From: Escherichia coli
Lineage (GTDB): Bacteria > Pseudomonadota > Gammaproteobacteria > Enterobacterales > Enterobacteriaceae
Strand: one strand, 5' to 3'
DNA length: 64,000 nt
Assembly (NCBI RefSeq): GCF_048403405.1
Contig: NZ_CP183129.1
This document shows, one piece after another, positions 51,469-54,752 of this stretch (within the stretch, counting starts at the first letter, position 1; each line of letters opens with the position of its first letter). Under the pieces are notes generated by a model, which saw only the letters and a list, made by a program, of their open reading frames with translations, was not told the origin of the DNA and searched no databases. Made by a program: the position numbers and the translations under genes.

Positions 51469-51572
51469 AATTCTTGACCTCTCTTTACTTCCTTTTATGG
51501 TAAGGGGCTGGACGCTACATTGTTAGCCAGATATTCTGCCCGGTATGTTCAAATTTCCTGAATGAGAACGAA

Positions 51573-52469
51573 ATGGCCAAAGAAAGGGCATTAACGCTGG
51601 AAGCACTACGGGTTATGGATGCGATCGATCGCCGGGGCAGTTTTGCGGCGGCGGCGGATGAGCTGGGACGCGTGCCTTCCGCACTTAGCTACACCATGCA
51701 AAAACTGGAAGAAGAGCTGGATGTGGTGCTGTTTGACCGCTCGGGCCATCGCACCAAATTCACCAATGTCGGGAGGATGTTGCTGGAGCGAGGACGCGTT
51801 TTGCTGGAAGCCGCAGATAAACTGACTACCGATGCGGAAGCCCTCGCGCGCGGTTGGGAAACGCATCTCACCATTGTGACCGAGGCGCTGGTACCGACAC
51901 CTGCCTTTTTCCCGTTAATCGACAAACTGGCGGCAAAAGCCAATACCCAACTGGCAATCATCACCGAAGTGCTGGCGGGGGCATGGGAACGGCTGGAGCA
52001 GGGGCGGGCGGATATTGTTATCGCGCCGGATATGCATTTTCGTTCCTCGTCGGAGATCAACTCGCGCAAGCTCTATACGTTAATGAACGTCTACGTTGCC
52101 GCGCCTGATCACCCGATTCATCAGGAGCCGGAACCGTTATCTGAAGTGACGCGTGTGAAATATCGTGGAATTGCGGTGGCGGATACCGCTCGTGAGCGCC
52201 CGGTGTTGACCGTACAGCTGCTGGACAAACAGCCGCGCTTAACGGTGAGCACGATTGAAGATAAACGTCAGGCATTACTGGCGGGGCTTGGCGTGGCGAC
52301 GATGCCGTATCCGATGGTCGAAAAAGATATCGCGGAAGGGCGGTTGCGTGTCGTCAGCCCGGAATCGACCAGCGAGATCGATATTATTATGGCCTGGCGT
52401 CGTGACAGTATGGGGGAAGCGAAATCCTGGTGTCTGCGGGAAATTCCCAAACTTTTTAGCGGAAAATAA
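51573..52469 (+). CDS. yhaJ: LysR-family transcriptional regulator YhaJ
   Basis: ORF track 298 aa; N-terminal HTH; divergent from yhaK. Confidence 0.9.
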   Translation: MAKERALTLEALRVMDAIDRRGSFAAAADELGRVPSALSYTMQKLEEELDVVLFDRSGHRTKFTNVGRMLLERGRVLLEAADKLTTDAEALARGWETHLTIVTEALVPTPAFFPLIDKLAAKANTQLAIITEVLAGAWERLEQGRADIVIAPDMHFRSSSEINSRKLYTLMNVYVAAPDHPIHQEPEPLSEVTRVKYRGIAVADTARERPVLTVQLLDKQPRLTVSTIEDKRQALLAGLGVATMPYPMVEKDIAEGRLRVVSPESTSEIDIIMAWRRDSMGEAKSWCLREIPKLFSGK

Positions 52470-52546
52470 TGTTTGTTATTTTTAATAACAAGGGGCGAAA
52501 TATCGCCCCAATTCTAAGATTAATTTGAACCAAACTTCGGATCGTT

Positions 52547-52876
52547 TCAGTAACGATTGCTGCCAGAATTGCCCTCTAAACAGGCAAATACAAACAGAAC
52601 TAACCAGCCAATGATCGGTACCAGATAGAGAAGCGCCCACGCACCTGAACGGTCAGTATCATGCAGACGACGAACGCACAGAGCAATGACCGGAATGATT
52701 GTTGCTGCCAGGTAAATGAGAGAAAGGAACGGAAACTCTAAACCTAAAATCAATTGAATGACATTGATAATAGCGCCGACGATGGCGTTAATCAGAGTAA
52801 ACATCCAGTACTCTTTACGACGTGCGCGACCAGAGAAACCAACATAATTTTTTAATACGGATAAATACCACTGCAT
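52547..52876 (-). CDS. yhaI: DUF805 inner-membrane protein YhaI
   Basis: ORF track 109 aa; paralogue of YhaH (shared RRLHDTDRS motif). Confidence 0.85.
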   Translation of the reverse strand: MQWYLSVLKNYVGFSGRARRKEYWMFTLINAIVGAIINVIQLILGLEFPFLSLIYLAATIIPVIALCVRRLHDTDRSGAWALLYLVPIIGWLVLFVFACLEGNSGSNRY

Positions 52877-53117
52877 AAAAACATCCCTTTAATTAAAAGT
52901 GACGAAAGTTTATTCCGGGTATTGTGTAAATGCTATTCGTATCTTTCTTTTTCGGATGTTATAAAGGTTTTGATATTTAAGATAAATACATGGTTATTTT
53001 TTATATGTAATTTATATAACGACATTGAAATATTTTAAATAAACATTAGTAAATTATTCATTCATCAACATAATGATAAAAGCCGGATGAGTCAGACATC
53101 CGGCGAGTAGATTTGTT

Positions 53118-53483
53118 TTAAGGTTCCAGTTTTGGATCAGGTCCAAAGCGGTTTTCGCCTGGCGTACCCGCCTGGCAGTTAAAGACGATGATAATAAGCC
53201 AGCCGATAAACGGGATTAAGAACAGCAGTGCCCACCACGCCGAGCGGTCGGTGTCGTGCAGGCGGCGGAACTGAACTGCCCACCATGGTAAAAACACCAG
53301 AATACCGTAGATTGTCGTCAGGATGCCTTCGCCACCGGCACGTTGCCAGCCTAACATTTTATCCAGCAGCCCCAGCACGAACGTAAAGATGATGTTGACC
53401 AGAATAAACATCCAGTACTCTTTGCGCCGCGCACGACCCCGGAAACCGACATAATTTTTTAGTACTTTCAGATACCAGTCCAT
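53118..53483 (-). CDS. yhaH: DUF805 inner-membrane protein YhaH
   Basis: ORF track 53118..53504; internal ATG gives MDWYLKVLKNYVGF... (121 aa). Confidence 0.85.
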   Translation of the reverse strand: MDWYLKVLKNYVGFRGRARRKEYWMFILVNIIFTFVLGLLDKMLGWQRAGGEGILTTIYGILVFLPWWAVQFRRLHDTDRSAWWALLFLIPFIGWLIIIVFNCQAGTPGENRFGPDPKLEP

Positions 53484-53609
53484 TTTTGCCTCAATTTTGC
53501 TCAATCACTTGTTTTTAAAGCAGCAAATTAAGAATAGACGTGAATGAAATGGCAGTAAATATTATCGCGATGAATTAATAAGGCACTGTGAAGGATAAGG
53601 GCAAGCGCA

Positions 53610-53715
53610 AAATTGCCAGATGCGCTACGCTTATCTGGCCTACGCGGTCATTGTAACATATTGAATATAAACGTTTTGTGGGTTTGATAAGGCGTTCACG
53701 CCGCATCCGACATGA
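53610..53715. repeat. REP elements (two copies)
   Basis: GCCAGATGCGCTACGCTTATCTGGCCTACG and GATAAGGCGTTCACGCCGCATCCGACA read directly. Confidence 0.5.
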
Positions 53716-53765
53716 ACAACATGCACTTAGCTAATTATCAGAGGCACCTCGTAAGGTGCCTTTTT

Positions 53766-54752
53766 TTAACCGAAGCGAACATCTCGTCCATGCGGTTCAT
53801 CGAGATCCTGCCACGGACCAATTGAAATAATCCCCGTAGGGTTGATGGTCTTATGGCTGCGGAAGTAGTGATTACGGATGTGATCGAAATTGACAGTTTC
53901 GGCAATCCCCGGCATCTGGTAGATATCGCGCAGGAAACCATACAGATTCAGGTAATCGCTGATGCGGTGCTTATCACACTTGAAGTGGGTGACATACACC
54001 GGATCAAAACGCACCAGCGTGGTCCACAGGCGAATATCGGCTTCGGTTAGCTGGTTGCCGGTCAGGTAACGATGCTGACCTAAAATCTGTTCCAGTCGCG
54101 CCAGCGATTCAAACACTTTCGCCACCGCCTCGTCGTAGGCTTGCTGGCTGGTGGCAAAACCAGCTTTATACACGCCGTTGTTAACGGTGTCATAAATCCA
54201 GCCGTTAAGTTCGTCAATTTTCGTTTGCAGGGCTGGTGGGTAGTAATCACCCGCTTTCGCGCCCAGCGCATCAAACGCGGTATTGAACATGCGGATGATT
54301 TCCGCTGATTCGTTGCTGACGATGGTGTGGTTCTTTTTGTCCCAGAGTACGGGAACAGTCACTCGTCCGCTGTAGTCTGGATCGGCGTGGAGATAAAGCT
54401 GATACAAAAATTCATGTTGATAGAGTGTATCGCCGGTTGCACCCGGAAAACTGTCATCAAAGGTCCAGCCGTTTTCCAGCATCAGCGGGTTCACTACGGA
54501 AACGGAAATAAACGGTTCCAGTCCTTTGAGTTTACGCATGATCAGCGTGCGGTGCGCCCACGGGCAGGCGAGTGAAACATAGAGATGATAACGATCTTTC
54601 TCTGCGATAAAACCGCCTGTGCCAGTGGGGCCTGGCGCGCCATCGGCAGTGAGCCAGTTACGAAATGCGGAAGCTGAACGTTGAAATTTACCGCCGGTAG
54701 ATTTGGTATCGTACCAGATGTCATGCCAGACGCCGTCAATCAGTTGACCCAT
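53766..54752 (-). CDS. yqjG: glutathionyl-hydroquinone reductase YqjG (Xi-class GST)
   Basis: ORF track 53766..54773; internal ATG gives MGQLIDGVWHD... (328 aa); CPWAHR active-site motif. Confidence 0.92.
   Translation of the reverse strand: MGQLIDGVWHDIWYDTKSTGGKFQRSASAFRNWLTADGAPGPTGTGGFIAEKDRYHLYVSLACPWAHRTLIMRKLKGLEPFISVSVVNPLMLENGWTFDDSFPGATGDTLYQHEFLYQLYLHADPDYSGRVTVPVLWDKKNHTIVSNESAEIIRMFNTAFDALGAKAGDYYPPALQTKIDELNGWIYDTVNNGVYKAGFATSQQAYDEAVAKVFESLARLEQILGQHRYLTGNQLTEADIRLWTTLVRFDPVYVTHFKCDKHRISDYLNLYGFLRDIYQMPGIAETVNFDHIRNHYFRSHKTINPTGIISIGPWQDLDEPHGRDVRFG

Follow-up and report, generated by a model that had tools for sequence, protein, structure and literature searches.

Introduction

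Proteins of the bacterial inner membrane can act as host factors for phage infection after adsorption, as is the case with ManYZ for lambda and PtsG for HK97. The Escherichia coli protein YhaH may be likened to these factors, since it too resides in the inner membrane and its loss prevents infection, in this instance by phages ΦWec188 and ΦWec190. ManYZ and PtsG act after adsorption, and the likeness is meant as an analogy rather than a claim of membership; it also concerns YhaH and not the paralogous protein YhaI. Specifically, a yhaH frameshift/stop mutant of E. coli TK001 resists both phages, complementation restores sensitivity, and YhaH has been described by the authors as an inner-membrane protein that ΦWec188 and ΦWec190 require (bioRxiv 10.1101/2024.11.29.626071; PMC12695924). 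This recently reported resistance is the only phenotype for either gene.

In E. coli K-12, YhaI (b3104, 118 aa) and YhaH (b3103, 121 aa) are annotated as 'DUF805 family inner membrane proteins', and both genes are listed among the uncharacterised 'y-ome' genes of the species (PMC11551758). Because the genes described below are these catalogued DUF805 members, the pair itself was already known. DUF805 (Pfam PF05656; COG3152) is a widespread bacterial family of proteins with three transmembrane (TM) segments. Our search of the literature on DUF805, PF05656 and COG3152 did not find a functional study of the family.

At AT-rich DNA, the regulator Ler is well known to counteract silencing by H-NS. 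With an upstream region of 27% GC and a 36-fold activation by Ler in EHEC, the largest effect of Ler outside the LEE island (PMC3891560), yhaI appears to resemble the AT-rich promoters that are silenced by H-NS and activated by Ler. The yhaI spacer differs from such promoters in that its locus lies outside any recognised island or mobile element (PMC3891560), and the likeness is drawn from AT-richness and Ler only.

Here we examine the yhaH-yhaI locus in a 64,000-nucleotide stretch of an E. coli genome (the window). We consider it likely that the locus is a separately transcribed DUF805 pair consisting of a core gene, yhaH, and an old, patchily distributed gene, yhaI, whose upstream region is silenced and which exists as two allele classes, with a nonsense mutation in the window strain. 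A search of the literature yielded no description of a trimorphic locus, of a mosaic with saturated synonymous divergence or of the truncation in this strain. The trimorphism, the mosaic and the truncation are modest population-genetic observations.

Results and discussion

Organisation of the yhaH-yhaI locus

On the minus strand the order is yqjF, yqjG, yhaH, a 241-bp spacer and yhaI, and yhaJ is convergent on the plus strand (Table 1). The order yqjF-yqjG-yhaH-yhaI-yhaJ-yhaK of K-12 is the same as in the window. A 1,301-bp region around the pair is 100% identical to E. coli strain 4621, a human blood isolate, whose RefSeq annotation of the identical DNA agrees with our open reading frame (ORF) calls. 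The same region was matched in 5,421 of 5,426 complete E. coli genomes. Because GAGG occurs 7 nt upstream of the ATG at 53483, we favour this start, which gives the 121-aa YhaH, over an alternative TTG at 53504. The RefSeq protein YhaH WP_000384145.1 is identical in all seven of the two-gene E. coli strains fetched.

Relative to K-12, the window YhaH is 100% identical, the spacer has three mismatches and YhaI residues 1-45 are identical. The window YhaI is 84% identical to K-12 YhaI overall; it carries 17 substitutions (57 base changes) within residues 46-103, and the last nine residues are gone.

Table 1. Features of the yhaH-yhaI locus, in positions of the window.
Feature	Position	Strand	Description and basis
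yhaH CDS	53118..53483	-	121 aa from ATG; conserved core DUF805 copy, ends ...DPKLEP; ORF list and Pfam E 4.5e-35
yhaH intrinsic terminator	53072..53104	-	8-bp stem with 6 G-C pairs, 7-nt loop, then UUUUAUCAUU; consensus scan and RNA fold
AT-rich spacer	52877..53117	-	241 bp, 26.6% GC; yhaH terminator, then the predicted yhaI regulatory/promoter region
CpxR-box-like sequence ATAAACATTAGTAAA, a lead only	53039..53053	+	one mismatch to GTAAA-N5-GTAAA; pattern search
Candidate regulatory block CCTTTATAACATCCGAAAA upstream of yhaI	52949..52967	-	alignment of yhaI upstream regions
yhaI CDS, window-type ('W') allele	52547..52876	-	109 aa; ORF list and Pfam DUF805 E 3.4e-30
96-nt direct repeat	52781..52876 with 53388..53483	-	78% identity; codons 1-32 of both genes; repeat search
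Hyper-divergent mosaic segment of yhaI	52569..52741	-	codons 46-103, i.e. TM2, RRLHD loop and TM3; mismatch map against K-12
Former last 8 codons and stop of yhaI (NDPKFGSN*)	52520..52546	-	untranslated here; same as K-12
G+C-rich hairpin GGGGCGATATTTCGCCCC	52492..52509	.	probable shared terminator of convergent yhaI and yhaJ; consensus scan

YhaH and YhaI are DUF805 proteins with three predicted TM helices

An initial annotation of this DNA had described tandem DUF805 genes whose products share the motifs RARRKEYWMF and RRLHDTDRS. Both motifs are indeed found in YhaH and in YhaI, and the two proteins match PF05656 end to end and far above its gathering threshold of 25.7 bits, with 120.9 bits for YhaH (profile positions 1-111 of 111) and 105.2 bits for YhaI (positions 1-109 of 111). 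The pairwise alignment that had been proposed as a check on their paralogy revealed no identity so low as to be incompatible with it (BLASTP, 52% identity, E 6e-41).

The architecture of the pair is that by which the family is recognised, namely three TM helices together with the motifs G-R-x-x-R-x-E-Y/F-W and R-R-L/M-H-D. Among 55 diverse DUF805 members, residues R17, R19, R20, E22, W24, R69, R70, H72 and D73 are invariant, and further residues conserved family-wide are N107, G110 (invariant), P113 and K114 (both in at least 90% of the sequences). The C-terminal tail of the family, G-x-N-x-Y/F-G-x-(D/N)-P-K, is present in YhaH and missing from the window YhaI, which ends in ...GSNRY. This loss marks the window YhaI as a truncated DUF805 member, not as a non-member.

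The initial annotation had counted two TM segments, and this number needs to be revised. Hydropathy analysis reveals three hydrophobic segments, which form separate peaks in YhaH, while in YhaI the first two are fused into a 48-residue stretch. Likewise, an AlphaFold2 model based on 55 diverse family members (pLDDT 89.5) has helices of TM length at residues 20-44, 50-73 and 78-99, the last of which is kinked at Pro87, and an N-terminal amphipathic helix at residues 2-13. Each protein would therefore be predicted to place this amphipathic helix and three TM helices at the inner membrane. Lysine and arginine residues number 8-10 on the side of the N-terminus and loop 2 versus 2-4 on the side of loop 1 and the tail, and because of this distribution the positive-inside rule predicts an N-in, C-out topology. 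Judging from the charges, the GRARRKEYW and RRLHDTDRS motifs probably face the cytoplasm, and the G-x-N-x-Y/F-G-x-D/N-P-K tail probably faces the periplasm.

Searches of other model collections did not assign the proteins to additional groups. No NCBIfam model matched either form of YhaI, and the NCBIfam hits for YhaH were below threshold (VP0952 family, 22.6 bits with a cut-off of 80; ABZJ_00895 family, 18.9 bits with a cut-off of 33). The PADLOC defence-protein models gave zero matches to the pair at E values up to 1, and structure and profile searches with the pair did not find homology to enzymes or transporters. An old label of YhaI as a 'putative cytochrome' is rejected, since no profile search supports it.

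The spacer contains a yhaH terminator and a candidate yhaI control region

The AT-rich spacer of the initial annotation, and the hairpin with a T-run that it had placed after yhaH, are both borne out. GC content is 26.6% in the spacer, the lowest value in the neighbourhood, as compared with 43% in yhaI, 52% in yhaH, 56% in yhaJ and 43-56% in the neighbouring genes overall. The hairpin has the sequence GCCGGATG-N7-CATCCGGC followed by TTTTATCATT. Its stem starts 14 nt past the yhaH stop codon and leads directly into the U-run tail, and its predicted folding energy of -15 kcal/mol (z -4.47) was equalled by none of 200 shuffled sequences. These characteristics are those of a rho-independent terminator.

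Published expression data indicate that the two genes respond differently. Overproduction of CpxR increases yhaI expression 3.2-fold on arrays and 40-fold by qRT-PCR, versus 1.9-fold for yhaH (PMC2731931), and to this can be added the activation of yhaI by Ler (PMC3891560). In Salmonella, yhaH is repressed by the sRNA SdsR, and YhaH protein increases toward stationary phase (PMC5137417). Independent transcription of the two genes, as had been proposed at the outset, is therefore supported both by the terminator and by the differing expression responses.

A scan of the spacer for consensus sigma-70 promoters found none, against 3.5 expected by chance. The Rfam collection, searched over 52300-53900, revealed no RNA family in the spacer and gave two sub-threshold hits in REP-rich DNA upstream of yhaH. 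Small ORFs of 21-38 aa are present in the spacer, and nothing supports them. The yhaI-proximal upstream DNA is AT-rich also in four homologous regions of other genera, which have a CTTTATA..TCC.AAAA block in common, and CCTTTATAACATCCGAAAA is alignable among E. coli, Superficieibacter and, more weakly, C. amalonaticus. The CpxR-box pattern occurs nine times in the window versus 3.3 times expected, and the site in the spacer is not conserved in other genera.

From the terminator, the expression data, the anti-H-NS role of Ler and the absence of a consensus promoter, we infer that the spacer is a silenced, activator-dependent promoter region for yhaI. The AT-rich upstream region would keep yhaI silent, probably via H-NS, and the gene would be switched on by regulators that relieve silencing or respond to envelope stress, Ler and CpxR being examples. 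A conserved and tightly controlled promoter region of this kind would explain why the effects of Ler and CpxR in published arrays are so large.

The gene pair is probably ancient

The similarity of the two genes had initially been read as a local duplication. The paralogy stands, but a simple local event does not agree with the age of the copies, with the many loci that carry yhaH only or with the presence of the pair in other genera. At the DNA level yhaH and yhaI are only 48-66% identical, which indicates that the duplication is ancient, and the 96-nt repeat is its only DNA-level trace.

We surveyed 17 enterobacterial species loci, fetched from among the matches listed, and in 15 of them yhaH stands alone between yqjG and yhaJ, which is the common arrangement among Enterobacteriaceae. 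These yhaH-alone loci include Citrobacter werkmanii, C. youngae, C. braakii, Klebsiella, Raoultella, Enterobacter, Pluralibacter, Cedecea, Shimwellia, Siccibacter, E. albertii and the GTDB representative of E. coli. A yhaH-yhaI tandem occupies the same site in the same orientation in C. amalonaticus and two Superficieibacter species, and in Intestinirhabdus alba a YhaI-type gene is the sole copy at the locus. The C. amalonaticus and Superficieibacter pairs share with E. coli the position between yqjG and yhaJ, the orientation, the upstream block and a similar Shine-Dalgarno context, and the C. amalonaticus spacer has 29.5% GC. They differ in that their YhaI-like proteins share no more than 61-64% identity with the E. 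coli protein, and Superficieibacter additionally has REP-like inserts in its spacers and a third, distant DUF805 copy at the locus.

Within E. coli, yhaI is accessory, being present in ~80% and missing from ~19% of the 5,426 complete genomes. E. coli Nissle and NRG 857C carry yhaH without yhaI, as does about one-fifth of the genomes, in which half of the query was matched. The yhaH-alone haplotypes of E. coli resemble E. albertii: YhaH ends in LEQD or LEQE instead of LEP, and the terminator hairpin is different and sometimes split by a REP element. Because these haplotypes differ in the 3' end of yhaH and in the terminator, the ~655-bp yhaI block looks like a replacement and not like the partner of a clean deletion.

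These data bear on where yhaI came from. If yhaI had arisen from the resident yhaH by a recent tandem duplication within E. coli, with the spacer as a remnant of the junction, then the adjacency of the genes, their common strand and motifs and the 78% repeat at their 5' ends would be accounted for. We consider this very unlikely, given the 52% protein and 48-66% DNA identity and the YhaI-type genes that lie at the same site in other genera downstream of a homologous upstream block. Moreover, YhaI is equally close (46-58%) to DUF805 proteins from Firmicutes and Actinobacteria among the matches listed, and it lacks a 4-residue loop insertion common to all enterobacterial YhaH proteins. Another route would be horizontal acquisition, in which yhaI and its AT-rich upstream DNA entered between yhaH and yhaJ as a foreign cassette and later spread through recombination in the flanks. 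The patchy distribution, the replacement-like block, the lower GC content of yhaI and the spacer relative to yhaH and yhaJ, and the occurrence of DUF805 genes on phages and plasmids all fit such an origin. In a neighbour-joining tree the YhaH clade has 99% and the YhaI clade 63-72% bootstrap support, and the two are neighbours at only 40%, which leaves room for a foreign source. The topology of this tree nevertheless sets the YhaI clade beside the enterobacterial YhaH clade, the flanks contain no integrase, repeats or other mobile-element scars, and one old in-place duplication followed by losses is the simplest explanation for a gene that lies at one site and in one orientation in three genera or more. 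On balance we regard acquisition of a foreign cassette as rather unlikely, and it can in part be reconciled with the preferred explanation if an old duplicate was later re-introduced into Escherichia.

We therefore favour an ancient duplication that probably occurred at this very site in an enterobacterial ancestor and was followed by many losses, and yhaI may have re-entered Escherichia through recombination in the flanks. According to this preferred explanation, yhaH would be the conserved core copy with its own terminator, and yhaI would be an old tandem duplicate that survives patchily in E. coli, C. amalonaticus, Superficieibacter and Intestinirhabdus alba.

Two divergent allele classes of yhaI

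A mismatch map against K-12 (strain MC1061) revealed that 57 of the 173 bases (33%) in the mosaic segment differ, versus ~1% elsewhere in the pair. For codons 46-103, synonymous divergence is saturated (pS 0.74) and dN is 0.21 (dN/dS ~0.07), while dS is 0.035 in codons 1-45 and 0 in codons 104-118. All 17 amino-acid changes exchange non-charged residues, mostly hydrophobic for hydrophobic, in or beside TM2 and TM3.

We used the mosaic segment for a sensitive blastn census of the 5,426 complete E. coli genomes, which detects copies that are 75% identical. The outcome was bimodal, with 2,288 genomes at 95% identity or above (window type), 2,079 at ~75% (K-12 type; K-12, BL21 and O157:H7 among them), two intermediate and 1,057 (~19%) without a match, although these frequencies are not population estimates because the genome collections are clonally biased. 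Five further haplotypes exhibit ordinary flank divergence that is not sorted by allele class, and the only variable patch besides the segment lies in the REP-rich DNA upstream of yhaH. A rare K/W/K recombinant was also found (P0006). In RefSeq, K-12-type copies are named 'yhaI' and window-type copies are unnamed among the matches listed.

Both 90% clusters of the allele classes hold only E. coli and Shigella proteins, and the next-closest proteins are 61-67% identical. No donor for either class was found among the 5.8 billion proteins searched. The distance between the window and K-12 types (67% nt) is about what is found when yhaI of one Superficieibacter species is compared with that of another (66%). 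These patterns suggest that purifying selection acts on two allele classes of the TM2-TM3 half of yhaI, both of them ancient. Most likely a short patch of yhaI was replaced through recombination with an unsampled, diverged yhaI lineage.

A donor nearer at hand would be yhaH or another DUF805 paralogue in the same genome, from which gene conversion could have created the mosaic 3' half. Paralogues 600 bp apart are natural partners for such an exchange, and yhaH is matched slightly better by the K-12 allele (55% nt) than by the window allele (48%). Both alleles are, however, only 48-55% identical to yhaH in the segment, compared with 67% to each other, and blastn located a single site in each genome (4,373 sites in 4,369 genomes), which indicates that E. 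coli genomes hold no donor copy. With identity this low and a second copy absent, we reject gene conversion and grant it virtually no likelihood. A different question is whether balancing selection holds the two classes, exerted perhaps by phages or by something else that touches TM2-TM3, or whether they are the neutral relic of one recombinational import. The intermediate frequencies with almost no intermediates between the classes, the narrow peak of saturated synonymous change within flanks ~1% different, flank distances that do not track allele class, and the need of two phages for the paralogue YhaH (bioRxiv 10.1101/2024.11.29.626071) are all in line with such selection. The low dN/dS and the swaps among non-charged, mostly hydrophobic residues instead resemble purifying selection on two functionally equivalent forms. 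In addition, yhaI is dispensable in ~19% of genomes and truncated in the window, no phenotype is tied to it, and the clonal bias of the collections affects the frequencies themselves. We thus judge maintenance by balancing selection to be improbable, and favour two old classes under purifying selection.

A rare nonsense mutation in the window yhaI

In addition to its non-K-12 class, the window yhaI carries a rare and probably recent nonsense mutation. The GGA codon for Gly110 of K-12 is TGA at 52547-52549, and because of this nonsense codon the window YhaI has 109 aa instead of the canonical 118. A 69-mer that includes the stop has an exact match in only eight of the 5,426 complete E. coli genomes, and the 109-aa protein occurs on 40 contigs, while each 118-aa form occurs on 1,000 or more. 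The truncation removes G110, P113 and K114, and the loss of this conserved C-terminal motif suggests an impaired product; it probably weakens or abolishes YhaI function.

Possible functions and significance

The initial annotation was essentially right in assigning no function to the pair, although two phages are now reported to depend on YhaH as a host factor (bioRxiv 10.1101/2024.11.29.626071; PMC12695924). With low confidence, we suggest that YhaH and YhaI may be small non-enzymatic envelope proteins that act through membrane-embedded contacts, a guess that is consistent with the requirement of certain phages for YhaH. A bolder proposal is that YhaI is an accessory and normally silenced paralogue, inducible by stress or Ler, that alters the interaction between the DUF805 proteins of the cell and phages that need YhaH, and that its alleles, its presence or absence and its recurrent knock-outs are kept by phage-driven balancing selection. 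We give this proposal very little weight. If it were true, YhaI could mix with or replace YhaH at the inner membrane, and the DUF805 morons encoded by Stx phages would represent the counterpart of this interaction on the side of the phage.

For the biology of E. coli, our findings mean that the species is trimorphic at yhaI: among complete genomes, ~42% have the divergent TM2-TM3 allele, 38% have the K-12 allele and 19% have no yhaI. The K-12 YhaI is consequently not representative of 'the' E. coli protein, and individual strains, the window strain among them, carry truncations. The dependence of phages on YhaH provides a concrete assay both for the role of DUF805 proteins and for differences between the YhaI alleles.

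Sequence variation around yhaH and yhaI

The intergenic region between yqjG and yhaH is hypervariable among E. coli strains: with indels counted, it carries 12-24 differences per 100 bp, whereas most flanking windows carry 0-5 and none more than 9. A REP-like sequence is present within this region, and sub-threshold Rfam matches to naRNA4 and isrD lie at or just beyond its edge. In the yhaH-only haplotypes of E. coli SCPM-O-B-8794 and of E. albertii, a REP/BIME-like element interrupts the terminator hairpin between yhaH and yhaJ. In Nissle, which is also yhaH-only, this hairpin is uninterrupted and 33 bp separate the two genes.

The divergent intergenic region between yhaK and yhaJ contains two overlapping candidate CpxR boxes, each matching GTAAA-N5-GTAAA with one mismatch. 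Overproduction of CpxR has been reported to increase yhaJ expression twofold (PMC2731931).

Coordinates of features in the window and in comparison loci (L numbers; coordinates internal to each locus)
Feature	Source	Coordinates
Candidate CpxR boxes	Window	51474-51498
Hypervariable region	Window	53500-53690
naRNA4 match	Window	53681-53717
isrD match	Window	53722-53766
IS1 element	E. coli TBU0218_10-1CC	L004:5120-5817
Third DUF805 copy	Superficieibacter	L005:2697-3053
Third DUF805 copy	Superficieibacter	L006:4460-4804
Interrupted terminator	E. albertii	L030:4360-4573
Interrupted terminator	E. coli SCPM-O-B-8794	L040:4360-4580
YhaI-type copy	Intestinirhabdus alba	L090:3001-3360
DUF805 ORF	Shigella phage 75/02 Stx	L094:3471-3860

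DUF805 gene content

Older annotations name YhaI (protein P0033) a 'cytochrome' or 'putative cytochrome' (PMC3891560), an assignment that no profile search supported. An intact, unannotated DUF805 ORF of approximately 129 aa, with 40% identity to YhaI, is carried by Shigella phage 75/02 Stx and is also found in POCJ13. Both are Stx-converting lambdoid phages, and the ORF lies within their nin region in the reverse orientation to the neighbouring genes, a moron-like placement. PHROG 12855 likewise classes DUF805 proteins as 'moron/host takeover'.

The yhaH-yhaI locus of Superficieibacter includes a third DUF805 gene, only distantly similar (approximately 32-35% identity) and placed differently in the two species. 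Intestinirhabdus alba has only a YhaI-type copy at this locus, with yhaH absent. In E. coli TBU0218_10-1CC, an IS1 element between yhaJ and yqjG occupies the place expected for yhaH and yhaI, so at least one natural isolate can do without both DUF805 genes.
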